DNA of 64,000 bases from sequence record OZ035795.1. One strand, 5' to 3'. Of this stretch, positions 1,941 through 59,479 are shown in pieces. The notes beneath the pieces are model-generated. The model was not told the DNA's origin. It searched no databases and saw only the letters and a program-made list of their open reading frames with translations. Each line of letters begins with the position of its first letter. Position 1 is the stretch's first letter. Position numbers and translations under genes: made by a program. This DNA is from Krischvirus LF73P4.

Positions 1941-1968
1941 TTGACATGCTGATGTGGTAATGTATAAT
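1941..1968 (+). promoter_or_regulatory. sigma70-like early promoter
   Basis: TTGACA 1941-1946, TATAAT 1963-1968, then conserved leader ACACATCGAAAC...GAGAGGATTATATTATG. Confidence 0.6.
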
Positions 1969-1999
1969 ACACACATCGAAACAAAGAGAGGATTATATT

Positions 2000-2329
2000 A
2001 TGTGGACTGTAGAACAAATCGTAAACGACTCAACCGAAATTATCTCATGCGGCACTATTGAAGAATGTCTTAAAGCCGCTAACCGTGAATGTATTACGGT
2101 TTATGAATCACGTCGCGGTGATGGCAGCTTGATTCAAAGCGATTACCGCTACACCGCAAATAAAATTATCTTCCGTTTCTGGGAAAATGGTGTTAATGTT
2201 GGTGTCAGCCTACTGAAAATGTGGCGTGATTATTCCGAACGCTATTATGTTTCTCCTGATGTTGGTAATGAGTTTAAAACCGAGATCACAGAAGAAAACG
2301 TTAACGAAAACTATCTCAAGCTGGTTTGA
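2000..2329 (+). CDS. hypothetical protein
   Basis: 109 aa ORF, ATG preceded by conserved GAGGATTATATT initiation module and promoter; no recognised motif. Confidence 0.5.
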   Translation: MWTVEQIVNDSTEIISCGTIEECLKAANRECITVYESRRGDGSLIQSDYRYTANKIIFRFWENGVNVGVSLLKMWRDYSERYYVSPDVGNEFKTEITEENVNENYLKLV

Positions 2330-2344
2330 TAGGAGATTTATATT

Positions 2345-2926
2345 ATGATTCAATGTGTATTTGCGATTGGTGACACTAAAATGTCGGATGAAAATTGGGC
2401 TTTTGGTTTTAAAGGCGGTTTACCGTGGGGTCGTCCAATCAAAAAGGACATGGAAAACTTTAAAATGCGCACTATGGGAGATGTTGATCTTGCGGCGGTT
2501 GTAATGGGACGCAATACCTTTGAAAGTCTTCCTAAAGCACTGGAAGGTCGTGTGAATGTGGTTGTTAGTACCGATACCAGTAAGCCAGCACCGAAAGCAA
2601 AAAACGGCGAACAACCTGATGTGTATACCGCGATTACTAATGATGGTGGATTGAAGGAATTATTAGAAGTCATAGAGAAATTGCAAGGTTTGGTAAGCGT
2701 TATCGGCGGACCTTCCCTGATTGAAAAAGCGGTTGACTTTGCGGACCGTATTGTGTTAACGTATGTTCAACGTTCAGGGGTCAACGATCCATTTGAATAT
2801 GATGTTGGTATCTCTAAGGAAATGATTCAGGAATTATATTTTGATTTTGCAACAAAAGAAGAACATAATTACTTCCTTGATGATTACCTGATCAGCGAAC
2901 AAATTTTAGAACGTAAGAAGGCGTAA
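2345..2926 (+). CDS. frd: dihydrofolate reductase
   Basis: 193 aa; DHFR signatures (GxGLPWG, VVMGRNTFESLP, VIGGxxL) and T4 frd position between 32 and td. Confidence 0.9.
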   Translation: MIQCVFAIGDTKMSDENWAFGFKGGLPWGRPIKKDMENFKMRTMGDVDLAAVVMGRNTFESLPKALEGRVNVVVSTDTSKPAPKAKNGEQPDVYTAITNDGGLKELLEVIEKLQGLVSVIGGPSLIEKAVDFADRIVLTYVQRSGVNDPFEYDVGISKEMIQELYFDFATKEEHNYFLDDYLISEQILERKKA

Positions 2927-2927
2927 C

Positions 2928-3020
2928 ATGAAAATTCTGACAGATTATGAGTGCAAACATTGTGGTGAATCTTTGATGTTTGCTGGTAGTCGGTGTTTAC
3001 ATTGTGGACGGGAACAATAA
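2928..3020 (+). CDS. small zinc-ribbon protein (30 aa)
   Basis: CxxC...CxxC in 30 aa; start overlaps frd stop; below the ORF-track size cut-off. Confidence 0.3.
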   Translation: MKILTDYECKHCGESLMFAGSRCLHCGREQ

Positions 3021-3289
3021 TGAAAATAACCATTATTCAATTATGGTCAGCTACCAGTGAAAACTACGCAGTAGCCGTAGATTATTACGGGTTACAATAT
3101 CTCTATGATGAAGCTAAAGCGTCATGGCTTCCAGTACAGGAAAATAGCGACATTTCAAGACCTGTTACTGTATTCGATCCGGGCGTTGTCTTTATCGATA
3201 TTGACGAGACAGTAGCAAAACTGCGTAAGAAAGCAATCAATAAGAAAAAGGTGAAGTGGGATGAAAGAATATTTGAAACTGTTGCGTGA
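3020..3289 (+). CDS. hypothetical protein
   Basis: 89 aa from internal ATG of track ORF 2993-3289; overlaps td start by 29 nt. Confidence 0.35.
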   Translation: MKITIIQLWSATSENYAVAVDYYGLQYLYDEAKASWLPVQENSDISRPVTVFDPGVVFIDIDETVAKLRKKAINKKKVKWDERIFETVA

Positions 3290-4484
3290 TGTTCTTGATA
3301 ATGGTTGGCCTCGTGAAGACCGCACGGGGGTAGGTACGCTCTCTAAATTCGGCGCAGAGATGCGAATTGATTTAAGCAAGGGTTTCCCCTTACTGACCAC
3401 TAAAAAGATGGCTACAGCCTCTGTAATTGGCGAATTGCTATGGTTTATGGAGGGATCACTTGACCGCCGTCGTTTACAGGAAATTACACGCGGTAAGTTT
3501 GACGAAGAAGCCTTCGACATTTGGCGCGGTAACTGTCTTGATATGAAAGAAAAGAATCCTTTGCGATTCAATGGTTATAATGTCGGTAATATGTATGGTA
3601 TGGCATGGCGACGCAAACCGATTCATCCACACGGTGAAATCAAAATTAAGCGCGTTAAGAGCAAATATACACATACATTTAAGCACCCGTGGGTAGAAGA
3701 CTTTACGCCAACTAACGACACAGAAGACCGTTTATGTGCTATCTGGCGTGGTATGCGTTATGAAGAGTTTGATTATATTCTGGTAGCAGACCACTGGAAG
3801 ACTCAATCTAATTTTGTTAATGATGCATATTGCTTGTGGGGATTCCAGGAATGGGTAGATGATGGTTATTTCGGTTATCTGCTTGATAATGAATATCTGG
3901 GCGGTGACATTTTAGCACCGGATACCACGATCTTTGTTAGTATGGACGTAGACACATCAAGCCCTAAAGACGATGAAGAATATGTCTATCGCCAGAAGAT
4001 CTGGGAAGACCAGTTACAAAAAGTTATTGACATGATCAAGAATGATCCATATAGTCGTCGTATTATCATTGATTCATGGAACGTACAGGAAACGCATAAT
4101 GCTGTGTTAGGTGTATGTCATCCGATGGTACAGTTTTATGTTTCCAACGACAACAAATTGAGTTGTTTATTTTTCATGCGTTCGAATGATCTCTTTTTAG
4201 GGAATCCGTTCAACGTAGCGAGCTATGCACTGTTAACGCATATCATCGCGAAGATTTGCGGGTTAGAAGTTGGCGAACTGGTTTATCAGTGTGGGGATTG
4301 CCACATTTACAAAAACCATTTTGATCAAGTTATGGAACAGTTAAGCCGTGTTCCGTTTGATAAACCAACAATTGAGTTGCCGGAATTTAAATCTTTAGAT
4401 GAGGTATTGACAAAGACTCCGAAAGACTTTAAAATTCACAACTATCAAAGCCATCCAGCAATCACCGCTCAAATGGCAGTATAA
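3261..4484 (+). CDS. td: thymidylate synthase with large internal insertion, intron-less
   Basis: 407 aa; TS signatures DRTGVGT, GFPLLTTKK, catalytic-Cys region VLGVCHPMVQFYV, FLGNPFNVASYALLTHIIA, DCHIYKNH; ~120-130 extra residues relative to T4 Td between the WRR and DPYSRRII segments. Confidence 0.9.
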   Translation: MKEYLKLLRDVLDNGWPREDRTGVGTLSKFGAEMRIDLSKGFPLLTTKKMATASVIGELLWFMEGSLDRRRLQEITRGKFDEEAFDIWRGNCLDMKEKNPLRFNGYNVGNMYGMAWRRKPIHPHGEIKIKRVKSKYTHTFKHPWVEDFTPTNDTEDRLCAIWRGMRYEEFDYILVADHWKTQSNFVNDAYCLWGFQEWVDDGYFGYLLDNEYLGGDILAPDTTIFVSMDVDTSSPKDDEEYVYRQKIWEDQLQKVIDMIKNDPYSRRIIIDSWNVQETHNAVLGVCHPMVQFYVSNDNKLSCLFFMRSNDLFLGNPFNVASYALLTHIIAKICGLEVGELVYQCGDCHIYKNHFDQVMEQLSRVPFDKPTIELPEFKSLDEVLTKTPKDFKIHNYQSHPAITAQMAV

Positions 4485-4490
4485 ACAAAT

Positions 4491-4508
4491 GCGGGGAGAA
4501 ATCCCCGC
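4491..4508 (+). repeat. GCGGGGA-GAAA-TCCCCGC hairpin (promoter-less copy of the PeSL stem-loop)
   Basis: same stem-loop as in the promoter repeats at 7093-7109, 7986-8002, 36353-36369; no T-run; lies just upstream of the ribosome-binding site of the 4521 ORF. Confidence 0.6.
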
Positions 4509-4520
4509 TAGGAGTATCAA

Positions 4521-4838
4521 ATGAAAATATGCCGCGTTGTAAACAAGTACAATAGCGATTTTGATGTTAACATTCAGCGTGGTACTATGTGGGGAAATCC
4601 ATACACCGCCAAAGAATACGGACGCGAGAAAGCTATTGCATTATACAAAGAGTGGTTGTATAATAAGATTCGAAATGGTGAGATAACACGAGCGCATTTA
4701 GAAGTATTAAGACATATGCGCTTAGGTTGTACTTGTTACCCTAAGAAATGCCACGGTGAAGTATTGGCGGATCTCGTTAATAGAGTTTTCGGCGATACTC
4801 CAGAAAATACGCTTGATATATTAAGTGAGGTAATATGA
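4521..4838 (+). CDS. DUF4326-like protein
   Basis: 105 aa; MWGNPY ... CxCxPxxCHGEVL pattern as remembered for DUF4326 family proteins. Confidence 0.4.
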   Translation: MKICRVVNKYNSDFDVNIQRGTMWGNPYTAKEYGREKAIALYKEWLYNKIRNGEITRAHLEVLRHMRLGCTCYPKKCHGEVLADLVNRVFGDTPENTLDILSEVI

Positions 4839-7078
4839 TTAAAAATGTTGTTAAGTCTTCCGGTCTGACTGTTCCGTTTGAAAAAGAAAAAGTAATGAAA
4901 ATTCTGGAAGCGGCAGCCGAAGGTCATAACGTTGATCCATATGAATTGTTTGATATGGTTGAACCACTTCTGACAGAAGGTATGTCTACCAATGATATCC
5001 AGAAAGTATTGATTAAGGTCGCCGCAGATAACATCACGGTAGAAACTCCTGATTATCAATATGTAGCAAGTAACCTTGCAATGTTCGCGCTTCGCAAATC
5101 AGTATACGGTCAATTCCAACCGATTGATTTTTACAGCCATATTGAGCGTAATATTGCAACCGGAAAATATGATCGCGAAATTCTGCAAAAATATTCCCGT
5201 GAAGAAGTGGAATATCTGGAGAAATTCATCGACCATAAACTTGATTTTAAAATGACCTATGCTGGTGCGATGCAGTTAAAAGAGAAATATCTTGTTCAAG
5301 ATCGCAGCACCAAGAAAATCATCGAAACACCGCAATTTGCGTATATGCTGATCGGTATGTGCTTGCATCAAGAAGAGACAGAAAATCGACTTGAACATGT
5401 GATTGATTTTTATAATGCGGTTGCGAATAAGCAAATCTCTCTGCCTACTCCGATTATGGCAGGTGTGCGTACCCCAACACGCCAATTTAGTTCGTGTGTG
5501 GTGATTGAAAGTGATGACTCATTGCAGGGTATTAATGAAACCGCAAATGCAATCATCAAGTATATTAGCAAGCGTGCTGGTATCGGTATCAACGCTGGCA
5601 TGATTCGCGCGGAAGGATCTAAGATCGGGCATGGTGAAGTTCGTCATACTGGAGTTATCCCATTCTGGAAACATTTTCAGACTGCCGTTAAGTCATGCTC
5701 ACAAGGCGGTATTCGTGGCGGGGCAGCGACACTCTATTACCCAATGTGGCATTTAGAGTTTGAAAGTCTGATTGTGTTAAAGAACAATAAGGGCGTGGAA
5801 GATAACCGCATTCGTCATCTTGATTACGGCGTACAGATTAATAACCTGATGGTAGAGCGATTCCTTAAACGGGATTACATTACTCTGTTTAGTCCAGATG
5901 TTGCGGGTGGCTTGTTGTGGGATCTGTACTTCCGAGACGAGGAAGGTTTCCGCCAACTTTACGAAAAACTGGAAAAAGATCCGAGTGTTCGTAAAACTCG
6001 TGTTAAAGCCGAAGACCTGTTTTTAGCGGTGGCAATTGAACGTTTTAACACTGGTCGAATCTACCCAACGTTCACAGACAACATGAACAATCACGGGGCG
6101 TTTATTCGTAATGTAGCACCGATTAAACAATCTAACCTGTGTTGTGAAATTGCACTGCCTACTAAACCGATGGGTCGTGATGATTCAGAGATCAGCCTAT
6201 GCACTTTGGCAGCATATGTTTTAGGTAATTTCGATATCGAAAACATGGAAGAAGTAGAACGCATTGCTATGGTTATGGTGCGTGCACTTGACAACCTGTT
6301 AGATTATCAGGATTATCCTGTAGAACAAGCTCTGACAGCAAAAAAACGTCGCTCTCTGGGCGTTGGTGTTACTAACTTTGCATCATATCTCGCGGATAAT
6401 TTCTTCACATATGAAGACGCTAACGAGTTTACGCATAAAACGTTTGAACGCTTGCAATATGCTCTGATTAAGGCTAGTGTGCAACTCGCAAAAGAGAAGG
6501 GTGCTTGCGAACTGATGCACGAAACACGCTACGGTCGCGGTGAACTTCCTATCGACTGGTACAAAAAGACAGTAGATGAACTGGTTGATCCGGTGTATGA
6601 GATGGATTGGGAAGAACTGCGCGAAGACCTGAAAAAATATGGCATTCGTAACAGTACGCTTTCGGCTCTGATGCCTTGTGAGTCGTCTTCTCAGGTATCT
6701 AACAGCACAAACGGTATTGAACCGCCTCGCGGGATTGTATCGGTTAAAGGATCGAAAGAAGGGCAATTTAATCAGGTTATTCCGAACGTAGAGAATAATG
6801 CTGATGTTATTGACCTGCTTTGGACACTGATCAAGAAAGGTAACAAGCCTTATCTGACACTTGCAGCGATCATGCAGAAGTTTGTAGACCAGGCGATTAG
6901 TTCCAACACATCCTACGATCCAAGCACTTATAAGACTGGTAAAGTCGATATTGCTGATGTGTTAGATGATATGTTGTTCGCTCAACATTACGGTCTGAAA
7001 ACCCTGTATTATGCGAACGTTCGCGACGGTGCAGATGGTACGGAAGACGCTAGCGAGTGTTCATCCTGTAAGCTGTAA
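4835..7078 (+). CDS. nrdA: aerobic ribonucleotide reductase large subunit
   Basis: 747 aa; N-terminal ATP-cone, class I RNR active-site region (NLCCEI, PCESSS), C-terminal CxxC tail; T4 order td-nrdA-nrdB. Confidence 0.95.
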   Translation: MIKNVVKSSGLTVPFEKEKVMKILEAAAEGHNVDPYELFDMVEPLLTEGMSTNDIQKVLIKVAADNITVETPDYQYVASNLAMFALRKSVYGQFQPIDFYSHIERNIATGKYDREILQKYSREEVEYLEKFIDHKLDFKMTYAGAMQLKEKYLVQDRSTKKIIETPQFAYMLIGMCLHQEETENRLEHVIDFYNAVANKQISLPTPIMAGVRTPTRQFSSCVVIESDDSLQGINETANAIIKYISKRAGIGINAGMIRAEGSKIGHGEVRHTGVIPFWKHFQTAVKSCSQGGIRGGAATLYYPMWHLEFESLIVLKNNKGVEDNRIRHLDYGVQINNLMVERFLKRDYITLFSPDVAGGLLWDLYFRDEEGFRQLYEKLEKDPSVRKTRVKAEDLFLAVAIERFNTGRIYPTFTDNMNNHGAFIRNVAPIKQSNLCCEIALPTKPMGRDDSEISLCTLAAYVLGNFDIENMEEVERIAMVMVRALDNLLDYQDYPVEQALTAKKRRSLGVGVTNFASYLADNFFTYEDANEFTHKTFERLQYALIKASVQLAKEKGACELMHETRYGRGELPIDWYKKTVDELVDPVYEMDWEELREDLKKYGIRNSTLSALMPCESSSQVSNSTNGIEPPRGIVSVKGSKEGQFNQVIPNVENNADVIDLLWTLIKKGNKPYLTLAAIMQKFVDQAISSNTSYDPSTYKTGKVDIADVLDDMLFAQHYGLKTLYYANVRDGADGTEDASECSSCKL

Positions 7079-7086
7079 AATAACTG

Positions 7087-7115
7087 TTGACGCGGGGAGA
7101 AATCCCCGCTATAAT
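7087..7115 (+). promoter_or_regulatory. PeSL-type promoter copy A (TTGACG-17-TATAAT, hairpin in spacer)
   Basis: TTGACG 7087-7092; spacer CGGGGAGAAATCCCCGC is a perfect hairpin; TATAAT 7110-7115; 32-nt identity with copy at 7977-8008. Confidence 0.7.
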
Positions 7116-7133
7116 GTGAGGTGAATTGTAAGA

Positions 7134-7983
7134 ATGAATTATTACAATGAGTGGGATAAAGGCGCGGCTAACTGGTTACGTGAACTTATAGCAAACAAAT
7201 TAATTCCTTATGGGTATGTCGATGAAAGATCAATTACAGAAGTCACCCCTAGAGATCTGGAAGGATTTACACAATGTCACTTCTTCGCGGGGATTGGGGG
7301 GTGGTCAAGAGCATTGCAACTCGCTGGAGTACCAGAAACAACAAGGCTATGGGCCGGATCGCCACCATGTCAACCATTTTCAAGAGCCGGAAAGCAAAAA
7401 GGAAAGTTCGACGAAAGACACCTTGCACCGACATTTCTTAAACTCGTGTCAGCGTGCAAACCTCCAATGCTCTTTGGGGAACAGGTTGCAAAAGCTATCG
7501 AAACCGGGTGGTTGGATGATCTTCACGAGGAATTGGAAAGAGAAGGTTACAGTGTCGGGGCTGCGGTATTATCATGTGATATCGTCGGTGCGCCGCACAA
7601 GCGGGACAGACTTTTCTTCGGGGCTATTAACGAGTTGGCAAACACCTACTGTAACGAATATATCAGCAAGATCGCCGGGCAATGCAACGGAGAATGGAAG
7701 CGAGACTTGCAACGGGGAGGAAATCACTAGCGCCGGGAAATTTATCAGAACAAGTGAAGATGTATTACGGTTTTGGGACAGTGGAACAGAGTATCTATGC
7801 AGAGACGGGAAAAAACGAATTGTTGAACCCACGATTCCCTTGTTGGCTGATGGGGTATCCTCAACAATGGGACGATTGCGCGGTTATGGCAATGCGATAG
7901 TTCCTCAAGTCGGAGCACTTTTTATAGAAAGTTTTGTAGGTGCTTACATTGATGCTTGCGATGGATTGTCAAATAGCTGTTGA
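7134..7983 (+). pseudogene. disrupted DNA (cytosine-5)-methyltransferase (motifs spread over three frames)
   Basis: frame of 7134: FAGIGGW (motif I), PPCQPFS (IV), FGEQV (VI-like), HKRDRLFFG (VIII), stop at 7730; frame of 7682: NPRFPCWLMGYP (motif IX-like), stop at 7900; frame ending 7983: RLRGYGNAIVPQV (motif X). At least two frame changes are needed for a full-length enzyme. Confidence 0.7.
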
Positions 7984-8008
7984 CGCGGGGAGAAATCCCC
8001 GCTATAAT
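7980..8008 (+). promoter_or_regulatory. PeSL-type promoter copy B (identical to copy A)
   Basis: TTGACG 7980-7985 (overlaps the TGA stop of the methyltransferase frame), hairpin spacer, TATAAT 8003-8008. Confidence 0.7.
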
Positions 8009-8039
8009 ACAACCATCAAAAACAAGTGAGGATTTTATT

Positions 8040-8207
8040 ATGACCAAATTAAAATGTGTTGCTGTAGATTTTGAACTAGCTGATAGCTTTGTTGTTGGTG
8101 ATGAATATGATGCTCGACATGATGGGACTTGCTACTACGTCGAGGATGAATACGGTGTAGAATGGGCGATTCTTCCTGATGATAAATGTTTTGAGGTTGT
8201 CGGATAA
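8040..8207 (+). CDS. hypothetical protein
   Basis: 55 aa from ATG after GTGAGGATTTTATT initiation module; acidic. Confidence 0.4.
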   Translation: MTKLKCVAVDFELADSFVVGDEYDARHDGTCYYVEDEYGVEWAILPDDKCFEVVG

Positions 8208-8380
8208 TGGCTACTGTATGGTTATTGATTGCAATAAGCAATTCAATGTATAATTACGGAAATATGTCAAGCATTGAGTTTGCAACAAAGCAGGATTGCG
8301 TTAAAGCTCGCGAGATTATCCGCGAAGACAATAAACGCTTTATGAATCTATATTGCGTTGAAAAACAAAAGGTGAACTAA
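8207..8380 (+). CDS. small protein, tandem paralogue 1 (MATVWLLIAIS...)
   Basis: 57 aa; hydrophobic N-terminus; start overlaps previous stop (TAATG); similar to the next ORF. Confidence 0.4.
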   Translation: MATVWLLIAISNSMYNYGNMSSIEFATKQDCVKAREIIREDNKRFMNLYCVEKQKVN

Positions 8381-8547
8381 TGGCTACATTATGGTTATTG
8401 CTTTCCGTTAGCGTAGGCGTATATAATAAAGGAACTGTTACCAGCGTAGAGTTTTCATCATATCAAAATTGTTTTGAAGCTGTGCAGGAATTGCAGCAGG
8501 ATAGCGAAATAAACAGAAATACTAAGTTCTTTTGTGTTAAAAAGTGA
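8380..8547 (+). CDS. small protein, tandem paralogue 2 (MATLWLLLSVS...)
   Basis: 55 aa; same architecture as 8207-8380; start overlaps previous stop. Confidence 0.4.
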   Translation: MATLWLLLSVSVGVYNKGTVTSVEFSSYQNCFEAVQELQQDSEINRNTKFFCVKK

Positions 8548-8562
8548 TAGTGAGGTGAATTA

Positions 8563-9726
8563 ATGAGCGTATTTAACCGCGAACATGTTGATATTATGAA
8601 CGAACCGATGTTTCTGGGTAGTGGGTTGGGTATCGCTCGCTATGATATTCAGCGTCATCAAGTATTTGAAGAATTAATTGAAAAATCTCTGTCATTTTTC
8701 TGGCGTCCAGAAGAGATTTCACTTGCAACCGACCGCATTCAATATCTTAATATGGGTGACGTTGAAAAGCGTTTCTTTACCGAAAACTTGAAGTATCAGA
8801 CATTACTTGATTCTATTCAAGGTCGCGCACCGTCCGCAGCATTTGGTCCAATTGTATCTGATCCAACTCTCGATACATGGTTGCAAACATGGACATTCAG
8901 CGAAACGATTCATAGCAGAAGCTATACACACATTATGCGTAACTGTTTCATTGATCCGGCTAGTGAGTTCGACCAGATCATCGATAACCCTGCTATCATG
9001 AAGCGAGCGGAATCTATCGGGAAATATTATGATGATGTTCTGGTGAAAATCCGTGAATACGAGGACGCTAAAGAAAGTTTTAGTCGTTCTTCTGAAAATG
9101 AATTTGACCTTGATGCATATTCTGATAGCATTTCGTACGTGGAAGAAACTAAACGCAATCTGATGGAATCACTCTATCTGTGTATGCATTGCGTTAATGC
9201 ACTGGAGGCAATCCGTTTTTATGTGTCCTTTGCATGTACTTTCAGCTTTGCCGAACGTGGTTTACTGGAAGGTAACGCGAAGATCATGAAATTTATTGCG
9301 CGTGATGAACAACTTCACTTAAAAGGCACACAATACATTATTCGTCAATGGCAAACGGGGGTTGATGGTGATGAGTGGAAACAGATTGCGGAAGAACTTG
9401 AAGGCGAAGCAACGAAAATCTTTCTGGATGTTGTCGAGCAAGAAAAAGAATGGGTAGACCACCTATTCGCAATGGGGTCAATTCCTGGCTTGTCACCGGA
9501 AATTCTGAAAACTTATGTAGAATACCTGGCAGATTCCCGTATGCGTGCTGTCGGACTGAAAAGCCCGTTTAGTGTTCGTCGTCATCCTTTACCGTGGATG
9601 CGTAAGTGGTTAAACTCTGACGAAGTACAGAATGCAGCGCAAGAAGTAGAGATTATGTATCTGGTATCTCAGGTTAATACCGATTTAACAGACGATGACT
9701 ACAACCGATTCGGGAAATATCTATGA
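8563..9726 (+). CDS. nrdB: aerobic ribonucleotide reductase small subunit, intron-less
   Basis: 387 aa; collinear with T4 NrdB (MNEPMFxGSGLGxARYDIQRH, FFWRPEE, SETIHSRSYTHI, FIARDEQLHLKGTQYII). Confidence 0.95.
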   Translation: MSVFNREHVDIMNEPMFLGSGLGIARYDIQRHQVFEELIEKSLSFFWRPEEISLATDRIQYLNMGDVEKRFFTENLKYQTLLDSIQGRAPSAAFGPIVSDPTLDTWLQTWTFSETIHSRSYTHIMRNCFIDPASEFDQIIDNPAIMKRAESIGKYYDDVLVKIREYEDAKESFSRSSENEFDLDAYSDSISYVEETKRNLMESLYLCMHCVNALEAIRFYVSFACTFSFAERGLLEGNAKIMKFIARDEQLHLKGTQYIIRQWQTGVDGDEWKQIAEELEGEATKIFLDVVEQEKEWVDHLFAMGSIPGLSPEILKTYVEYLADSRMRAVGLKSPFSVRRHPLPWMRKWLNSDEVQNAAQEVEIMYLVSQVNTDLTDDDYNRFGKYL

Positions 9727-10199
9727 TATATTTTGTCGATTTAGATTTTACGATCACAGATCCAACGCATCGACTAGCAAAGATGCCAACCGAAAATCTT
9801 GATAAAGTCGAGTCATGGATCGAATATAACAAAGCATGTGGGGGAGATTCCCCCATTTACGATGTAATTCGTGTTATTAATGCTCTTTCCGACAACGGGC
9901 ATTTGATTTACATCCTCACAGGACGAAGTTCACATGCTTACATGGAAACAATTGATTGGTTAATTTCTAACGGGGTGTGTTTTGATAAAATCTTTATGAG
10001 AGGCCGTACCGATTCCCGTAAAGACTATCACATCAAATTAGAGGTAATTAAATCCTTTGATAAAGATGAAGTTGTCGGAGTCTTTGAGGATAACCCAGAA
10101 GTGATTAAAGTTTTGCGTGAAAATGGTTATCGTGTCTTTGACGTAGGAAATCACAAAGATAAGACGCGAGCGGATATTGCAAATCACGGTCATGATTAA
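9723..10199 (+). CDS. HAD-superfamily phosphatase-like protein
   Basis: 158 aa; N-terminal FVDLDFTITD (DxDxT nucleophile motif), later Asp-rich motif; start overlaps nrdB stop. Confidence 0.5.
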   Translation: MIYFVDLDFTITDPTHRLAKMPTENLDKVESWIEYNKACGGDSPIYDVIRVINALSDNGHLIYILTGRSSHAYMETIDWLISNGVCFDKIFMRGRTDSRKDYHIKLEVIKSFDKDEVVGVFEDNPEVIKVLRENGYRVFDVGNHKDKTRADIANHGHD

Positions 10200-10211
10200 T
10201 GTTTGTTCAAA

Positions 10212-10236
10212 GTCGCCCATAGTGGCGACTTTTTTG
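10212..10236 (+). terminator. rho-independent terminator
   Basis: GTCGCC/GGCGAC stem followed by TTTTTT. Confidence 0.6.
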
Positions 10237-10246
10237 TTATTGGGTG

Positions 10247-10275
10247 TTGACAATCTGATCTTGCCATAGCATAAT
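10247..10275 (+). promoter_or_regulatory. sigma70-like early promoter
   Basis: TTGACA 10247-10252, 17-nt spacer, CATAAT; leader CACATCGAAACGGAGGAACATATG. Confidence 0.55.
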
Positions 10276-10299
10276 ACGCACATCGAAACGGAGGAACAT

Positions 10300-10518
10300 A
10301 TGGAAACAGAAGAACAAGTCATTGCATATTTTCATCGTAAAAAGATGAAACTTAGAATCGAAAAGCAGTACATCAATCACTACATTGACCGAGTTCACTT
10401 AACAAGTACACCTTACCTATTCCGGTTGATAAACCCTAGAAAACGGTGGGAGAAGTTGGATAGAAACACAAAAATAATTGATAAGCTCACCCAATGGTGG
10501 AATGAATACAACAAGTAA
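10300..10518 (+). CDS. hypothetical protein
   Basis: 72 aa basic ORF behind promoter and GGAGG ribosome-binding site. Confidence 0.5.
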   Translation: METEEQVIAYFHRKKMKLRIEKQYINHYIDRVHLTSTPYLFRLINPRKRWEKLDRNTKIIDKLTQWWNEYNK

Positions 10519-10525
10519 AAAGTAG

Positions 10526-10554
10526 TTGACACTGAATAACGGGGGTAGTAAGAT
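10526..10554 (+). promoter_or_regulatory. PeSL-type promoter (hairpin GGGGGTAGTAAGATACTCCC spanning -10)
   Basis: TTGACA 10526-10531, 17-nt spacer, TAAGAT -10 inside the palindrome; leader CATCGAAACGAAAC + AAGGAGAATCAAAATG. Confidence 0.65.
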
Positions 10555-10587
10555 ACTCCCATCGAAACGAAACAAAGGAGAATCAAA

Positions 10588-10806
10588 ATGAAATTTACTT
10601 GCACCGACTCTATCAGCAAACACTTTGTAGTAGGCGAAGTATACGAATCTACTACCATTCGCCAGCGTGACCTGATGGGTCGCCTTTACAATCAGCCAGT
10701 ATTCATTATTGGCGAAGAATTGTTCTACATTGAAAACCGTCCGTGGGTTGCTTTCAATAAACGAGGACGCAAGGTAGCAAAATTCGAACTTGTCATTAAA
10801 AAGTAG
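10588..10806 (+). CDS. hypothetical protein
   Basis: 72 aa ORF behind PeSL promoter and AAGGAG ribosome-binding site. Confidence 0.5.
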   Translation: MKFTCTDSISKHFVVGEVYESTTIRQRDLMGRLYNQPVFIIGEELFYIENRPWVAFNKRGRKVAKFELVIKK

Positions 10807-10835
10807 TTGACAGCATGAAACGGGGGTAGTAATAT
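10807..10835 (+). promoter_or_regulatory. PeSL-type promoter
   Basis: TTGACA 10807-10812, palindrome GGGGGTAGTAATATACCCCC across -10, conserved leader. Confidence 0.65.
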
Positions 10836-10873
10836 ACCCCCATCGAAACGAAATACACTTTAAGGAGAATCAA

Positions 10874-11023
10874 ATGAACAACTTTGACGCGGTACTGAAA
10901 ATGGCAATCGAAACTTACGCGGAGATCTCCGGCGAGAAAGTAGAGGACATTATCAAAGAATGTCAGAACTTTGAAAGCCAGACAGCCAAGAATGTTCAAA
11001 TGTTGATGTTTGCGGTTGCATAA
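10874..11023 (+). CDS. hypothetical small protein (49 aa)
   Basis: ATG behind AAGGAGAATCAA module; below track size cut-off. Confidence 0.4.
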   Translation: MNNFDAVLKMAIETYAEISGEKVEDIIKECQNFESQTAKNVQMLMFAVA

Positions 11024-11031
11024 AAAAGCAG

Positions 11032-11060
11032 TTGACAGCATATCACGGGAGTAGTAAGAT
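11032..11060 (+). promoter_or_regulatory. PeSL-type promoter
   Basis: TTGACA 11032-11037, palindrome GGGAGTAGTAAGATACTCCC, TAAGAT -10. Confidence 0.65.
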
Positions 11061-11093
11061 ACTCCCATACCAAAACAACTAAGGAGTATCAAG

Positions 11094-11492
11094 ATGATTA
11101 AATTTCAAACTCGCAAAGATGTTCTGGACTTCGTTAAAGTTTTCGGTTACGCTGCATTGCAACATGCAATGGACAAAATGGCCATCTCCCCAGATCAGAC
11201 TATGCTGATCCGTATGGTTAAAGCAACCGCCTACAAAAACGACATTACCCTCTCAGAAATCAACGACGGTAATACTGTTCGCGAGGTAATTGTTTCTTTC
11301 GAATCACCGAAAATTGGCGGTTTTCATACCACGATGTTAGGTGAAATCACTGTCACTGTATACGGGCAAGGTGGCGGAGTGTTTACCGTCAAAGAAGCAA
11401 TGGAAAATGGAACGCTGAACAAAGAAAAACTGGAATTTGTCCTGAAAATCATCAAGGAGCGTAACGAAGCTCGCGATATTCTGGAAAGTTAA
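11094..11492 (+). CDS. hypothetical protein
   Basis: 132 aa ORF behind PeSL promoter and AAGGAG ribosome-binding site. Confidence 0.55.
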   Translation: MIKFQTRKDVLDFVKVFGYAALQHAMDKMAISPDQTMLIRMVKATAYKNDITLSEINDGNTVREVIVSFESPKIGGFHTTMLGEITVTVYGQGGGVFTVKEAMENGTLNKEKLEFVLKIIKERNEARDILES

Positions 11493-11498
11493 TAAGGT

Positions 11499-11522
11499 GG
11501 GCGGGAGAAATCCCGCCTTTGT
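11499..11522 (+). terminator. hairpin GGCGGGA-GAAA-TCCCGCC + T-run
   Basis: same GAGAAATC loop family as the PeSL hairpins, followed by TTT. Confidence 0.45.
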
Positions 11523-11542
11523 TGTGACGTGAGGAAAGGATA

Positions 11543-13109: not shown

Positions 13110-13115
13110 TAATAA

Positions 13116-13138
13116 GCGGGGCTAGTTCCCCGCCTTTT
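13116..13138 (+). terminator. rho-independent terminator after rnlA
   Basis: GCGGGG/CCCCGC stem + TTTT. Confidence 0.6.
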
Positions 13139-13154
13139 GTCGTTGGGGGGTAAT

Positions 13155-14805: not shown

Positions 14806-15008
14806 TGTTTACCGATAAACTCAAGCAATTAGGCGAAGCACTTGCTAAACGTGGTTTTAGTGTTGATATTGAACCAGCGCCAGTTATGCCGTTTAGCGAT
14901 GAACGTCGCAGTGTATATGTCATCATGAGAAATAATCATGGTGTGAATACATTCAATGTAAAACAGTATAGCGACGGATCAGTAGAATACTTTCGCGTAT
15001 ACGGTTAA
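14805..15008 (+). CDS. hypothetical protein
   Basis: 67 aa; start overlaps pseT stop. Confidence 0.4.
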   Translation: MFTDKLKQLGEALAKRGFSVDIEPAPVMPFSDERRSVYVIMRNNHGVNTFNVKQYSDGSVEYFRVYG

Positions 15009-47235: not shown

Positions 47236-47246
47236 CAATGGTAGTA

Positions 47247-47269
47247 AAGGGGCTACGTGCCCCTTTTTC
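47247..47269 (+). terminator. rho-independent terminator after uvsX
   Basis: AAGGGGC-TACG-TGCCCCTT hairpin + TTTT. Confidence 0.6.
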
Positions 47270-50435: not shown

Positions 50436-50635
50436 TTACGATGAAATGTCTTAAAAGCACATATGCACTTTTTGAAGCCGGAAAAGAATATGAATTTACA
50501 GAACTTGACCCGGTAGGCCGTTTTCGTGTATTCTCTTACACATCGCCAGATGGTAGTGTCTACAAATTTGGATTAGATGAGAACGGAGAGAATGAAAATG
50601 AAAGTGTAGGAACTTTCATGAAATTTGAGCTATAA
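50432..50635 (+). CDS. hypothetical protein
   Basis: 67 aa. Confidence 0.35.
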   Translation: MITMKCLKSTYALFEAGKEYEFTELDPVGRFRVFSYTSPDGSVYKFGLDENGENENESVGTFMKFEL

Positions 50636-50644
50636 GAGGTTATT

Positions 50645-51673
50645 ATGATTTACTACGCAGATTATGAAATAGCGGAAAAAGCCATATACGGCGAACGAAA
50701 TTTTAAACGGTTGCATACTAGCTCATTTACGCTGGTCTGTAGTTGTCCGATCTGCGGTGACTCAAAGAAAAATCATACTCAAGCGCGATTCCGTATCTAT
50801 ACCTATAAGGATAGTTTGCGTTGTGGTTGTTTCAACTGTAACTACAATCAGCCGTTAGGTGAATTTCTCAAACAGTATAAACCGGACCTATTCAGGGAAT
50901 GGCTTATGGAGAGACGGAAGGAACAAGGCGACCACAAGAACACCACGTTCAAGCCACTGAAAAAGGTAGAAAAGCCGGAGATTAAGAAAGTGCAAACATT
51001 GCCTTTCTGCGAGAGATTAGATACTCTTCCGGCTAATCATCCTATAATAAAGTATGTCAGTGATCGTTGCATCCCTCACGATAAATGGGATCTTCTGTAT
51101 TTCACGAGAGAATGGCAAAAGGTAGCAAATCACATTAAGGCTGATACTTTCAAGAACCCACAACCTGAACCGCGTTTAGTGATTCCTATCTTTAACCGCG
51201 AGAACAAGATAGAATCCATTCAGGGGCGAGCATTGAGAAAGGATTACGGAAAGACCAAATATATGACGATTAAAACTCATGAGTTAGCGAGTAAGGTCTA
51301 TGGTCTTGAACGCGCCGATCCGAGTAAGCCAGTGTATTTCTTAGAAGGTCCGATCGATTCATTGTTTATTGATAACGGGTGTGCAATTACTGGCGGTACT
51401 TTGGGATTAGATGAAATACCTTTCCCAGACCAGCGAGTGTTTGTACTTGATGCGGAACCACGGTCTGCCGATACAATGCACCGACTGGAAAAGTTTATCA
51501 ATGCAGGGGAAAAGATTGTATTGTGGGACCGTTGCCCGTGGCATTCTAAAGACGTTAACGCCATGATTCAGGACGAGGGCGCTACACGCGACCAGATCAT
51601 GGAATATATCAAAGAGAACACCGTACAAGGTCTGATGGCTAAAATGCGGTTTATGAAATATTGTAAATTTTAA
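50645..51673 (+). CDS. 61: DNA primase gp61
   Basis: 342 aa; N-terminal zinc ribbon CSCPICGDSKKN...CGCFNC, central Toprim-like acidic motifs; same size as T4 gp61. Confidence 0.85.
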   Translation: MIYYADYEIAEKAIYGERNFKRLHTSSFTLVCSCPICGDSKKNHTQARFRIYTYKDSLRCGCFNCNYNQPLGEFLKQYKPDLFREWLMERRKEQGDHKNTTFKPLKKVEKPEIKKVQTLPFCERLDTLPANHPIIKYVSDRCIPHDKWDLLYFTREWQKVANHIKADTFKNPQPEPRLVIPIFNRENKIESIQGRALRKDYGKTKYMTIKTHELASKVYGLERADPSKPVYFLEGPIDSLFIDNGCAITGGTLGLDEIPFPDQRVFVLDAEPRSADTMHRLEKFINAGEKIVLWDRCPWHSKDVNAMIQDEGATRDQIMEYIKENTVQGLMAKMRFMKYCKF

Positions 51674-52213: not shown

Positions 52214-52242
52214 TTGACACTAATCTATAATGGTTTTATTAT
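52214..52242 (+). promoter_or_regulatory. sigma70-like promoter followed by hairpin + U-run
   Basis: TTGACA 52214-52219, 17-nt spacer, TATTAT 52237-52242; hairpin GCCTCC...GGAGGC 52243-52266 and T-run before ATG 52276. Confidence 0.5.
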
Positions 52243-52275
52243 GCCTCCCGTCGAAAGATTGGAGGCTTTTTTATT

Positions 52276-52779
52276 ATGCAATTTACACCAGAAGAACTTA
52301 ACATCATTGATGAAGTGATGAACTCTAAAGAAAATATCGATATGTCGATCCTTAATGGATTGATCGAAAAGACTGAGCGGTTAGTGCATCATGAAGCCTT
52401 GTATCGCGGTGTGAGCAAAAGAGAAGGCCGTAAGCTGGATACCTTAATTGTAGGTGATTCTTTCGTTGTAGAGCGTCCTATGAGCTTTACGCCACTGAAA
52501 TCAACAGCAGAGGACTTTGCAACCGATGTTTATGCAACAGGAAAGATTATTGCAATAAAACCTACCAAGCCTTGCATGAATTATTACGAACATGCTATTG
52601 ACCGAGTGGTGTCTAAAGAGTATGACAATCCGACTACTCGACTGTCTTTGTATGCTATGTTGGCAGATGAGCGCGAGTGCATATACAAGACAGGGACGAC
52701 CATGATCCTTGATGAGATCGAGGAAGTTTACGCGTGTAATGGCGAGCTGATAGAGATTTACAAATTTTCTTTAATTTAA
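52276..52779 (+). CDS. putative mono-ADP-ribosyltransferase (Mod/Alt-like)
   Basis: 167 aa; R-S-E triad pattern: LYRGV (Arg), SFTPLKST (S-T motif), DERECIYKTG (ExE-like). Confidence 0.45.
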   Translation: MQFTPEELNIIDEVMNSKENIDMSILNGLIEKTERLVHHEALYRGVSKREGRKLDTLIVGDSFVVERPMSFTPLKSTAEDFATDVYATGKIIAIKPTKPCMNYYEHAIDRVVSKEYDNPTTRLSLYAMLADERECIYKTGTTMILDEIEEVYACNGELIEIYKFSLI

Positions 52780-56568: not shown

Positions 56569-56666
56569 GTCATATACTTGACAATCACTCAATTTTAATA
56601 TGATTGTTGCAGCCGTCTTTGTGGCGGTTGCAGTAAGTTATGGTTATGTTATGAAGAGGTTTAATA

Positions 56667-58490
56667 ATGAGTGAGTTTCGCATTTTATCTGATCGTGAGC
56701 ATGTCCTTAAGCGTGCAGGAATGTATATAGGATCAACAACTTACGAAGAACATCAACGTTTCCTGTTCGGTAAATGGACAAAAATTTCATATGTTCCTGG
56801 ACTGGTGAAAATCATTGATGAGATCATCGACAACTCTGTAGACGAGGCGATTCGCACTAATTTTGAATTTGCCAATGTGATTAGCGTCGATATCCAAAAC
56901 AATATTGTTACGGTAACAGACAACGGTCGCGGTATTCCTCAACATATGGTTACTACCCCAGAGGGCACGCAGATTCCGCAACCTGTAGCCGCATGGACAC
57001 GAACAAAAGCAGGGTCTAACTTTGATGATACCAATCGATTAACGCAAGGGATGAACGGTGTAGGGTCGTCGTTGTCAAATTTCTTTAGCGATTGGTTTAC
57101 TGGTGTGACCTGTGACGGCGAAACAGAAATGACCGTTCAATGTACAAACGGTGCTGAAAATATCACATGGTCATCGAAACCATCAAAATTGAAGGGAACA
57201 AAGGTTACATTTTGCCCAGACTTCGACCACTTCGAAGGTTATATGATGGACAACTCTGTTTTAGATATTGTTCATGATCGTCTGCAATCATTGAGCGTAA
57301 TATTTCCTAAGATCACGTTTAAGTTTAATGGTAAACGTATTGTTAGTAAGTTCAAGGATTATGCTAAACTATACAATGATGATCCGTTTGTCATTGAAGA
57401 TAAAAACTTTTCACTTGCCCTAGTTCCTGCGGTCGAGGGAGAAGGTTTTAAATCAGTATCCTTTGCTAATGGTCTGTTTACCAAAAACGGGGGAACACAC
57501 GTAGACTACGTGACAGATGATCTTTGTGAAGAGATTGTAAAACGAATCAAGAAAGAATATAAGGTTGATGTTACTAAAGCTGCGGTTAAATCTGGATTGA
57601 CCTGTATTCTTATTGTTCGTGAATTGCCTAACCTTCGTTTTGATTCACAGACAAAAGAACGATTGACTAATCCAACTGGTGATATCAAGCGTCATATTGA
57701 TCTTGATTTTAAAAAGCTGGCTAAAGTCATTGCGAAGAAAGAAAACATTATCATGCCTATTATTGCTGTAGTCCTGGCACGCAAAGAGGCAGCAGATAAA
57801 GCGGCAGCGACTAAGGCAGCAAAGGCAGCGAAACGGGCTAAGGTAGCAAAACACGTTAAAGCTAACCTTATTGGAACTGACGCAGAAACTACCCTGTTTT
57901 TGACGGAAGGTGATTCCGCGATCAACTATCTGATCTCTGTACGTGATCAAGATTTACATGGCGGTTTCCCGTTGCGAGGCAAAACTCTTACAACGTGGGA
58001 ACAACCGGAGGCAAAGATCGTTAAGAACGCCGAAATTTTTAACATCATGGCGATCACTGGCTTGCAATTTGGTGTTGATGCATTGGAAGTTATGCAATAC
58101 AAAAATATTGCGATTATGACAGACGCTGATACTGACGGGATCGGGTCTATTAAACCTAGTCTGATCTCTTTCTTTGCTCGTTGGCCTGAATTGTTCGAAG
58201 ATGGACGAATCCGGTTTATCAAAACACCTATTATCATTGCGGAACCAAAGAAAGGTGATGATGTTCGATGGTATTATGACCTAGAAGATTTTGAGAACGA
58301 CCGAGATAATATCAAAGGTTACAACATTCGATATATCAAAGGTTTAGCATCGCTCACAGAATCAGACTATCATCGCGTGATCAACGATCCTGTCATGGAG
58401 ATCATCACGTTACCGGAAAACTATAAAGAGCTATTCGATTTGCTCTATAGTGAAGATTCAGACATGAGGAAGGCATGGATGGCGTCATAA
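56667..58490 (+). CDS. 39: topoisomerase II ATPase subunit, gp39 fused to gp60-like C-terminal region
   Basis: 607 aa; GHKL ATPase motifs (DNGRGIP, GxNGVGSS), collinear with T4 gp39, C-terminal Toprim-like TDADTDG region corresponding to the separate T4 gene 60. Confidence 0.85.
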   Translation: MSEFRILSDREHVLKRAGMYIGSTTYEEHQRFLFGKWTKISYVPGLVKIIDEIIDNSVDEAIRTNFEFANVISVDIQNNIVTVTDNGRGIPQHMVTTPEGTQIPQPVAAWTRTKAGSNFDDTNRLTQGMNGVGSSLSNFFSDWFTGVTCDGETEMTVQCTNGAENITWSSKPSKLKGTKVTFCPDFDHFEGYMMDNSVLDIVHDRLQSLSVIFPKITFKFNGKRIVSKFKDYAKLYNDDPFVIEDKNFSLALVPAVEGEGFKSVSFANGLFTKNGGTHVDYVTDDLCEEIVKRIKKEYKVDVTKAAVKSGLTCILIVRELPNLRFDSQTKERLTNPTGDIKRHIDLDFKKLAKVIAKKENIIMPIIAVVLARKEAADKAAATKAAKAAKRAKVAKHVKANLIGTDAETTLFLTEGDSAINYLISVRDQDLHGGFPLRGKTLTTWEQPEAKIVKNAEIFNIMAITGLQFGVDALEVMQYKNIAIMTDADTDGIGSIKPSLISFFARWPELFEDGRIRFIKTPIIIAEPKKGDDVRWYYDLEDFENDRDNIKGYNIRYIKGLASLTESDYHRVINDPVMEIITLPENYKELFDLLYSEDSDMRKAWMAS

Positions 58491-58491
58491 T

Positions 58492-59055
58492 ATGAAAAGT
58501 GCGAAATTTTGGAATACTGAAATTCAAGAGGAATTAAAACGAAGATTTGGACACACGGAAGGTGTTCTATATCACAAAACAAATAGTCCGTCTTTTAATG
58601 GTCTGCCAGAGGGATATTTCTACCAAGTCGGTGATAAAGTAAAAACAAAAAAGTTAAATTACGGTCATTTGGCAATAGATGTTTACAATAAGGTTAAAAA
58701 GAGAACATCTACATATCTTGTACATAGAATTGTCTGGTTTCTTGAATATGGAACACAGGTTAAGGTAATAGACCACATAGACGGGAATCCAGAAAACAAC
58801 AATCCACCAAATTTACGGGAGGCAACACAACAACAAAACATGTACAATAAAAAGAAAATGGACGGGTGCACGAGCATATATAATGGTGTTACTCATCGCA
58901 AAGGATCTAGCAAAAGACCGTGGCAAGCACAAATAAGGATAAACGGATACAGAAAATACATAGGATCGTTTGCTACTCAGGAGGAAGCCGCTAGAGCATA
59001 TGATGAATATGCAAAAATTCATCATGGGGAGTTTGCATCTTTAAATTTTAGTTGA
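58492..59055 (+). CDS. HNH homing-endonuclease-like protein with AP2 DNA-binding domain
   Basis: 187 aa; HRIVW...IDHIDGNPENNNPPNLR (HNH_3-type) then YNGVTHRK...WQAQIRINGYRKYIGSFATQEEAARAYDE (AP2-like); AT-rich, AGA/AGG/ATA-rich codon usage unlike neighbours. Confidence 0.7.
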   Translation: MKSAKFWNTEIQEELKRRFGHTEGVLYHKTNSPSFNGLPEGYFYQVGDKVKTKKLNYGHLAIDVYNKVKKRTSTYLVHRIVWFLEYGTQVKVIDHIDGNPENNNPPNLREATQQQNMYNKKKMDGCTSIYNGVTHRKGSSKRPWQAQIRINGYRKYIGSFATQEEAARAYDEYAKIHHGEFASLNFS

Positions 59056-59079
59056 CACACAAGGGAGATTCTCTATAAT
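59052..59079 (+). promoter_or_regulatory. PeSL-type promoter (hairpin GGGAGA...TCTCCC spanning -10, then U-run)
   Basis: TTGACA 59052-59057, TATAAT 59074-59079 inside palindrome, TTTTCTTTT downstream. Confidence 0.6.
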
Positions 59080-59113
59080 GGGAGTCTCCCTTTTCTTTTA
59101 TGAGGATTTAACG

Positions 59114-59413
59114 ATGAGCAAAAAGAATAACATGATGATGAGTATGGCAAAGTTCATGGAAGCAGACCTGATCAAAAATACAGTACAGCATGAACGCCAG
59201 CGAGAAGCCGCAGTGATTGCAGAACAAGGTTTTCAGGTTATCCGCAATCCACCTAAAGATACGATTAAATCGAAATACAGAGACGATCTGAAAGACCATG
59301 AAGTACGGGAACTGGTTAATGATCTGCGTGACATTGCCATCAAATATCATGGTTATCAGTGCTTACGAGAACTGATCGCAGAGCGAGTAATGGATGCCCT
59401 GAAAAAAGATTAA
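59114..59413 (+). CDS. hypothetical protein
   Basis: 99 aa from ATG after GAGGATTTAACG. Confidence 0.45.
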   Translation: MSKKNNMMMSMAKFMEADLIKNTVQHERQREAAVIAEQGFQVIRNPPKDTIKSKYRDDLKDHEVRELVNDLRDIAIKYHGYQCLRELIAERVMDALKKD

Positions 59414-59420
59414 AAATCTG

Positions 59421-59449
59421 TTGACGCTGGATCGGGGATATATCATAAT
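59421..59449 (+). promoter_or_regulatory. PeSL-type promoter (hairpin GGGGATATATCATAATGTCCCC spanning -10)
   Basis: TTGACG 59421-59426, 17-nt spacer, CATAAT 59444-59449, conserved leader CATCGAAAAC. Confidence 0.6.
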
Positions 59450-59479
59450 GTCCCCATCGAAAACAAAAGGTTGACTTAT

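Follow-up and report, generated by a model that had tools for sequence, protein, structure and literature searches.

Promoter-early stem-loop elements in a 64-kb stretch of Krischvirus LF73P4 and their relation to variable gene content

A 64,000-nucleotide stretch of Krischvirus LF73P4 (record OZ035795.1; hereafter called the window) contains repeated cassettes in which a σ70-type promoter is combined with a GC-rich hairpin. These cassettes are almost certainly promoter-early stem-loop (PeSL) elements of an RB49-like, T4-type phage of the genus Krischvirus. Since the window derives from a relative of RB49 and PeSLs have been published for RB49 and phi1, promoter-hairpin cassettes are already known for this phage group (published 2010). 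Only two features go beyond the literature, a junction at position 19239 and a cassette that encodes a cytosine methylase.

Identity of the window and of its cassettes

A megablast comparison with 50,697 phage records identified the whole window as a close relative of Escherichia phage RB49 (genus Krischvirus). Its identity to RB49 and to about 58 related Krischvirus genomes amounts to 96–99%; the blocks aligned to RB49 are mostly about 97–98% identical, and one block is near 89%. None of the 50,697 phage records is identical to the window, and vB-Eco-KMB43 is among the closest relatives for both of its halves. The + strand of the window corresponds to the minus strand of the RB49 record and carries the early and replication genes. 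For comparison, 41 related loci covering window positions 300–60,300 were gathered via exact-protein look-ups. Scans of IMG/VR and JGI metagenomes with NrdB yielded only two to three Krischvirus loci.

PeSLs were named by Arbiol et al. (2010, Genome Biol Evol 2:140; PMC2839356), who counted about 51 of them in RB49 and 52 in phi1. According to that study, a PeSL consists of a promoter with σ70 consensus, an AT-rich upstream region and a polyG/polyC stem-loop that falls into one of five positional subclasses, with a Shine-Dalgarno sequence and an ATG at the 3' end. PeSLs favour hyperplastic regions and sites upstream of ORFans, and they are found on both sides of gene 43. PeSL206/205 led to approximately 13,000 Miller units of lacZ activity, and the stem-loop of PeSL211/210 lowered lacZ expression to a similar extent as the rrnB T1 terminator. 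Inverse polymerase chain reaction and sequencing revealed PeSL-to-PeSL circles with crossovers between the −10 region and the ATG. Comeau et al. (2014; PMC4122927) later gave the RB49/phi1 consensus as TTGACA-N17-TATAAT with a Gn-loop-Cn stem, and the early consensus of RB49 agrees with 5'-end mapping of early transcripts (PMC1524935). Several of these early promoters are already annotated in the RB49 GenBank record NC_005066.

The same anatomy was found in the window, that is, promoter, AT-rich tract with the upstream stop codon, stem-loops in all five classes, and Shine-Dalgarno sequence plus ATG at the 3' end, all in a T4-type genome and in the orientation of early transcription. The hairpin at 19244–19262 is base for base the stem-loop of RB49 PeSL211/210. 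An association with breakpoints of insertions and deletions (indels) was also observed; it is not exclusive, homing-endonuclease events being equally common. An earlier reading of the window from its letters alone (the sequence-only reading) had assigned the elements to the PeSLs of RB49-type phages, and this assignment was borne out by the identity to RB49 and by the presence of every sequence-level feature.

Early promoters

Promoters were searched with a strict scan (at least 11 of 12 matches to TTGACA-N16–18-TATAAT, strands counted separately, 100 dinucleotide shuffles). It detected 33 sites on the + strand and none on the − strand, compared with 1.13 ± 0.95 in the shuffled sequences. Perfect promoters (12/12) occurred ten times on the + strand versus 0.06 times in shuffles. 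The more than 20 σ70 promoters that had been claimed from the sequence alone were thus confirmed by the strict scan. A scan of the window with a loose threshold showed no excess (65 versus 54 ± 6.5).

Located between genes are 22 promoters (at least 10 of 12 matches), eight of which are perfect. All belong to the + strand, with a Shine-Dalgarno sequence and an ATG downstream; in 20 of these 22 cassettes the start codon is found 25–45 nucleotides (nt) past the −10 region. The upstream consensus tAAAAAGT.G immediately precedes TTGACA, and the stop codon of the upstream gene is located 0–63 nt before the −35 region. Cassettes occupy 22 of 102 gene boundaries, so that their presence at nearly every accessory open reading frame (ORF), as asserted in the sequence-only reading, was an overstatement.

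About half of the 33 near-consensus σ70 sites are located inside coding sequences, all on the sense strand. Examples on the + strand are those at 4027, 13743, 23015, 29533, 39315, 40333, 48329, 60035, 61993 and 62882. As their number is far above the 1.1 expected, promoter-like sites within genes are also strongly enriched.

The region downstream of the promoters is less uniform than the sequence-only reading had assumed. Of its conserved leader, the exact 14-mer CATCGAAACGAAAC is not significantly repeated (only three copies with at most two mismatches, a number equalled by 8 of 100 shuffles), and the shorter core CATC[GA]AAA does recur, in 8 of the 22 cassettes. Likewise, a recurrent ribosome-binding module exists, not as a single type but as two distinct ones, GAGGATTATATTATG and GGAGAATCAAAATG.

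Hairpins within and beside the promoters

A stable GC-rich hairpin within or beside the promoter is present in 20 of the 22 intergenic cassettes, in agreement with the earlier claim that most promoters carry a GC-rich palindrome; the promoters at 846 and 52783 are the two without one. Hairpins are located in the spacer in five cassettes (7087, 7980, 19239, 28935 and 36347), across the −10 region in nine (10526, 10807, 11032, 19913, 23138, 24048, 25283, 59052 and 59421), across the −35 region in one (promoter 43164), upstream of the promoter in three (1941, 10247 and 27786), and downstream of it at 52214. The hairpin at 45893 touches the −10 region, and therefore the class counts read 9–10 across the −10 region and 1–2 downstream.

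Strictly defined GC-rich hairpins overlap 16 of the 22 cassettes compared with a background of 10% (p = 4e-12). A local fold of −11 kcal/mol or lower was predicted for 20 of the 22 cassettes versus 43% of random windows (Mann-Whitney p = 8e-6), and the folding energies of cassettes are lower than those at promoter-like sites inside genes. Both the palindrome enrichment and the RNA folding that had been suggested as checks thus came out in favour of the hairpins. A search of the 64 kb against Rfam 15 gave no match at gathering score.

Several stems recur. The motif GGGAGTAGTAAGATACTCCC is present exactly at 11047–11066 and 24063–24082 (no matches in shuffles), with one mismatch at 10541–10560 (GGGGGT...) and 23153–23172, and with three mismatches at 10822–10841. 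CGGGGAGAAATCCCCG was found exactly at 4492, 7093, 7986 and 36353 (0.03 in shuffles), and GGGGATCACGTATCCCC is located at 19245–19261. The motif coordinates given previously were right overall, apart from one copy placed one base off (11048–11067 instead of 11047–11066) and the copy at 10541–10560, which carries one mismatch. Promoter-less hairpins were recovered where they had been reported (4491–4508, 11499–11518, 16220–16238 and 25844–25863).

All 31 intergenic hairpins of the window, with or without a promoter, begin 2–37 nt past a stop codon, and at least nine of them stand alone without a promoter. UUCG, GAAA or UACG loops occur among them, and a U-rich tail follows about 8–10 of the 31. 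Four to seven T are present in the eight bases after the hairpins of the upstream and downstream classes and after most stand-alone ones, which accordingly look like intrinsic terminators as far as sequence features can tell.

The elements are listed below by their coordinates in the window; all are on the + strand.

846–873: gene 32 early promoter (12/12) without hairpin; 'early RB49 promoter' in NC_005066; relatives with an HNH homing-endonuclease insertion here
1888–1968: PeSL; terminator hairpin with UUCG loop (1888–1911), then promoter 1941–1968 (12/12); indel hot spot
7087–7115: PeSL with spacer hairpin GCGGGGAGAAATCCCCGC; left flank of the cytosine-methylase cassette; 32-nt exact repeat with the 7980 copy
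7980–8008: PeSL identical to the 7087 copy; right flank of the cassette 7116–7966
10209–10275: PeSL; canonical terminator hairpin with T-run (10209–10232), then promoter 10247–10275
10526–10560: PeSL with hairpin GGGGGTAGTAAGATACTCCC across the −10 region, one G-T pair
10807–10841: PeSL with hairpin GGGGGTAGTAATATACCCCC across the −10 region, compensatory variant; left flank of the cassette with a 49-amino-acid ORF
11032–11066: PeSL with hairpin across the −10 region; right flank of the cassette with the 49-amino-acid ORF
19239–19267: hybrid PeSL with spacer hairpin 19244–19262; left part as in RB49 PeSL211/210, right part as in PeSL071/070
19913–19949: PeSL (12/12) with hairpin ATGCGGTTATCCTATAATAACCGCAT across the −10 region
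23138–23174: PeSL with hairpin across the −10 region
24048–24082: PeSL with hairpin across the −10 region
25283–25316: PeSL (12/12) with hairpin GGGAGTATGCTATAATACTCCC across the −10 region
27748–27813: PeSL; terminator with GAAA loop and T-run (27748–27769), then promoter 27786–27813 (12/12)
28935–28963: PeSL with spacer hairpin GGGGATCGCGAGATCCCC
36347–36375: PeSL with spacer hairpin GCGGGGAGAAATCCCCGT
43155–43192: PeSL (12/12) upstream of DNA polymerase gene 43; hairpin over the −35 region and spacer
45893–45948: PeSL (12/12) downstream of gene 43; hairpin of 12 base pairs (bp) at 45920–45948 after the −10 region
52214–52266: PeSL upstream of modB; terminator-like hairpin with T-run in its own leader; right edge of a replacement in relative L099
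52783–52811: intergenic early promoter without hairpin
59052–59092: PeSL (12/12) with 13-bp hairpin across the −10 region and T-run; right edge of an HNH-AP2 homing-endonuclease gene insertion
59421–59455: PeSL with hairpin GGGGATATATCATAATGTCCCC across the −10 region; left edge of an ORF absent from relative L102
41138–41192: promoter-like site in the 3' end of gene 45, then terminator hairpin 41173–41192
47204–47266: promoter-like site in the 3' end of uvsX, then terminator hairpin 47246–47266
4491–4508: promoter-less GCGGGGAGAAATCCCCGC hairpin, then AGGAGTATCAAATG ribosome-binding module; left edge of the window-specific DUF4326 ORF
11499–11518: stand-alone gene-end hairpin with T-rich tail
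13116–13133: stand-alone gene-end hairpin after rnlA
16220–16238: stand-alone gene-end hairpin after gene 31
25844–25863: stand-alone gene-end hairpin before nrdD
35240–35267: stand-alone terminator hairpin, seven T in the next eight bases

A 'hypothetical early promoter' in NC_005066 is approximately equivalent to the PeSL at 43155–43192, the transfer of positions being off by about 11 nt because of indels. In the leader of modB (52243–52276), a terminator-like hairpin and a T run directly precede the ATG, and the only GGAGG is located in the 3' arm of the stem. This arrangement hints that modB may be subject to attenuation or translational control.

Pairing constraint and proposed mode of action

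At least five unrelated stem sequences are used, and loops vary freely in length and sequence. Among orthologues and paralogues in about 40 relatives, stems have changed in a compensatory manner, namely from GGGAGT/ACTCCC to GGGGGT/ACCCCC, from GGGGATAT/ATATCCCC to GGGTGTAT/ATACACCC, and from GCGGGG..CCCCGC to ACGGGG..CCCCGT. When covariation was counted over the 8-bp stems across the −10 region, 98.8% of the cells were paired and 14 were changed on both sides, a score that was matched by none of 500 shuffles and by no slid register. Judged by their sequences, what the hairpins have in common is a structure and not a sequence motif.

Non-Watson-Crick stem positions are biased as well. The intergenic hairpins of the window contain 13 G-T but no A-C positions, and in the wider set of unique promoter-adjacent hairpins G-T positions were found in 30 hairpins versus five for A-C. 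This bias fits folding of the sense strand. The support is only moderate because base composition and coding-region hairpins lean the same way.

Could the palindromes instead be duplex DNA operators or cruciform sites through which a dimeric phage or host protein shuts off the early promoters, with no role in RNA? Their position in the spacer or at the −10 region is where a repressor would block RNA polymerase, and most of them lack a U-tract. However, a common recognition sequence is missing from the unrelated stems, the loops vary freely, and the compensatory substitutions preserve pairing rather than sequence. Moreover, hairpin positions span five classes, identical hairpins occur without any promoter, and the wobble positions are G-T on the sense strand, which is relevant to a single strand and not to duplex DNA. 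We therefore regard an operator function as highly improbable and infer that also the hairpins without U-tract act on RNA rather than on DNA.

Considering PeSLs as RNA-level elements, we propose the following model. Each cassette occupies some 75–100 bp between two genes on the early-transcription strand and comprises, in this order, the upstream stop codon in an A-rich tract, the σ70 promoter, a GC-rich stem-loop within or beside the promoter, a short leader, the ribosome-binding site and the start codon. Host RNA polymerase would use the near-consensus promoter right after infection. A hairpin in the spacer or at the −10 region lies upstream of the start of its own promoter and, therefore, could act only on transcripts arriving from upstream, which it may end, attenuate or stabilize. 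By virtue of this action, each small gene or gene group would become a self-contained expression unit. The presence of many cassettes in the same orientation may further allow the phage recombination system to exchange between them, such that genes located between cassettes are deleted, inserted or swapped while promoter and terminator stay intact. Promoter activity, terminator activity and mini-circle recombination are ascribed to the window's PeSLs by analogy with the literature on RB49 and phi1, and an effect of −10-spanning hairpins on read-through is likewise presumed by analogy.

Some observations weigh against this view of the hairpins. The sequences used for the covariation count had been picked because they form hairpins. 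The G-T/A-C asymmetry also exists in coding-region hairpins (13 to 4) and is partly expected from base composition. Hairpins spanning the −10 region have only one or two T in the next eight bases and hence are not canonical intrinsic terminators, and their proposed read-through effect is modelled on a single tested element of the spacer type in the literature.

Gene-content breakpoints

The sequence-only reading had proposed PeSLs as the recombination substrates that build the variable islands and had suggested comparing their placement with breakpoints in related phages. Indels of at least 25 bp were called across the 41 loci and grouped into 31 event clusters at about 24 loci. Breakpoints were associated with 10 of 22 PeSL-bearing boundaries and 16 of 80 other boundaries (odds ratio 3.3, p = 0.018). 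With homing-endonuclease events left out, the corresponding numbers were 7 of 22 and 6 of 80 (odds ratio 5.8, p = 0.006). This comparison with about 40 relatives thus revealed a three- to six-fold enrichment at PeSL boundaries.

At four sites, 1941, 7087/7980, 10807/11032 and 19239, variable DNA is flanked by PeSL copies, as recognized by the alignment of genomes without the variable DNA to both flanks. Among the relatives, at least six different cassettes are found at 1941, with flank overlaps of 36–84 nt, and in RB49 PeSL copies are found on both sides of ORF240. The identical PeSLs at 7087 and 7980 give a 42-nt overlap, and all 14 relatives compared lack the cassette and possess a single PeSL. 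For 10807/11032, the overlap in relatives is 95 nt, and the cassette with the 49-amino-acid ORF is absent from seven relatives. A transposon-like miniature element (MITE/IS) was considered and rejected: all copies share one orientation, the edges of the indels show no target duplications, and the flanks are PeSL copies.

Some of the variable genes can be named. Between gene 32 and the ORF that follows it (1920–2003), there is a hot spot at which relatives have at least six inserts of 348–1431 bp, each between PeSL copies; these inserts include CapR- or DUF4379-domain proteins and RB49 ORF240. The cassette at 7116–7966 encodes a C-5 cytosine DNA methylase (Pfam PF00145, E = 5e-19) and is present in only three of about 58 Krischvirus records. 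Phages of Salmonella and Cronobacter have homologues with approximately 75% nucleotide identity, and other coliphages have more distantly related ones. As the methylase gene is split over two frames (7134–7730 and 7682–7900), either a frameshift or a sequencing error is indicated. A 257-amino-acid ORF at 7210–7983 is spurious because the gene at this place is the cytosine methylase in another frame. An ORF of 105 amino acids with a DUF4326 domain (4509–4838) is located between td and nrdA; none of the 14 relatives compared has it. In front of this ORF, a PeSL hairpin without promoter is joined to a ribosome-binding module of the PeSL type.

Many of the presence/absence differences among relatives involve homing-endonuclease genes of the HNH_3-AP2, NUMOD3/4 and endonuclease VII types. 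The respective sites in the window are 838–905, 8547–8563, 15836–15862, 22339–22341, 35320–35324, 44415–44427, 50635–50645, 56653–56736 and 58492–59055. One relative harbours a homing-endonuclease gene inside DNA polymerase gene 43, and the window itself contains one at 58492–59055.

A role of PeSLs in exchange has to be weighed against the view that promoters and hairpins are independent features, i.e., ordinary early promoters and gene-end terminators whose overlap merely reflects the very short intergenic spaces of T4-type phages, and that the cassette is not a unit of mobility or recombination. In line with this view, all 31 intergenic hairpins closely follow stop codons regardless of the presence of a promoter, at least nine hairpins stand alone, two promoters lack a hairpin, homing-endonuclease events without PeSLs make up about half of the indels, and exact identity between PeSLs is short. 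Yet promoter plus hairpin recurs as a unit, as exemplified by the identical 29-mer at 7087 and 7980, the near-identical copy at 36347, and the family of five at 10526, 10807, 11032, 23138 and 24048. Two copies bound variable cassettes at four sites, breakpoints are enriched at PeSL-bearing boundaries, and PeSL-to-PeSL circles have been sequenced experimentally (PMC2839356). Mere coincidence of independent features thus appears improbable to us, although less so than an operator function.

Several points nevertheless speak against a dominant role of PeSLs in rearrangement. At about 11 of the approximately 24 indel loci, most of them in the replication module, a homing-endonuclease gene has been inserted without involvement of a PeSL. 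The longest exact identity between different PeSLs of the window is 32 nt, and 12–24 nt are typical, so that efficient homologous recombination is not self-evident. The enrichment of breakpoints is moderate, the paired boundaries of one event are not independent, and PeSLs are located in longer intergenic gaps and indel-tolerant regions, which confounds the comparison. Our data support PeSLs as preferred points of exchange, as published. They are not the sole builders of variable regions because about half of the indel events are homing-endonuclease insertions without a PeSL, and in this respect the proposal of the sequence-only reading was too broad.

The junction at 19239

No known relative is collinear with the window. 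Positions 1–19313 correspond to RB49 142853–123217 and positions 19229–62252 to RB49 43041–1, and it is exactly the PeSL at 19239 that both alignments share (join at 19219–19313). The regions joined here are about 80 kb apart in all of the approximately 58 known Krischvirus genomes, and the DNA missing at the join contains the whole head, tail and baseplate module. The PeSL agrees with PeSL211/210 in its left part including the hairpin loop and with PeSL071/070 in its ribosome-binding site and ATG; the crossover falls within a 41-nt stretch that is identical in both parents. Published mini-circle crossovers (PMC2839356) fall in the same zone.

The native arrangement was present in all 20 flanking-gene contexts retrieved and in all 58 phage records, and no match to the ORF211-to-ORF070 junction was found in IMG/VR or GTDB genomes. 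Over the 6,405 bases that were retrieved (12881–19285), Logan contig ERR12949693_9 shows 100% identity to the window. By its record coordinates it spans 7979–19285, and thus it starts at the 7980 PeSL and ends inside the 41-nt stretch, of which the window contains no second copy. A unitig-type assembler stops within such a stretch only if more than one context is present in the sample, which suggests a second copy elsewhere in the sample. A two-copy repeat gives rise to a figure-eight assembly graph, and an assembler may output an 84-kb loop of this graph as a contig. For this reason, an artefact of assembly at the repeat is the most likely explanation, and we consider it probable. That the join represents a real DNA molecule generated by long-range recombination between PeSL211/210 and PeSL071/070 appears unlikely, albeit less so than the alternatives discussed above for the cassettes. 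If it were real, the product would be a derivative or circle of 84 kb in which the genes for replication, nucleotide metabolism, recombination and tail fibres are retained and those for head, tail and baseplate are missing. PeSL exchange would then act over genome-scale distances and not only between neighbours, and it could generate helper-dependent defective genomes.

Implications

PeSLs offer an explanation of how small accessory genes can be gained, lost and exchanged in T4-type phages while transcription stays intact, a question that was opened and partly answered between 2010 and 2014 in the same phage group. Our study contributes a test on about 40 relatives, which showed a moderate and non-exclusive enrichment of breakpoints at PeSLs, and a clean example of foreign cargo, the cytosine methylase between two identical PeSLs. 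It further illustrates that PeSL repeats of 30–90 bp break, and can mis-join, assemblies of such phages.

Comparison with known systems

In T4, intercistronic regions contain intrinsic terminators along with hairpins that have stable tetraloops (C(UUCG)G, GNRA), as reportedly found by Tuerk and co-workers in 1988. Like these, the hairpins of the window are GC-rich, have loops of tetraloop types and are located a few bases past stop codons. Unlike them, the −10-spanning and spacer classes of the window lack a U-tract and are embedded in a promoter.

The PeSL/PmSL elements of T4/PST and KVP40/nt-1 (PMC4122927) share with those of the window the composite promoter-terminator layout and a proposed role in modular shuffling of hyperplastic regions. 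Their promoters are weaker (TTTACW..TAYWAT and TTGYVH..TAWWAT), and their stems are of the types AGNA-loop-TCNT and A3–4G3-loop-C3T3–4 and are mostly located upstream of the promoter.

From the PeSLs of RB49 and phi1 (PMC2839356) the elements described here do not differ in kind. Like those, they occur upstream of ORFans and on both sides of gene 43, and they are associated with indels; the window has its own set of cassettes. Distinct from RB49 and phi1 are the methylase cassette between identical PeSLs, the DUF4326 ORF behind a promoter-less hairpin, and the join at 19239.

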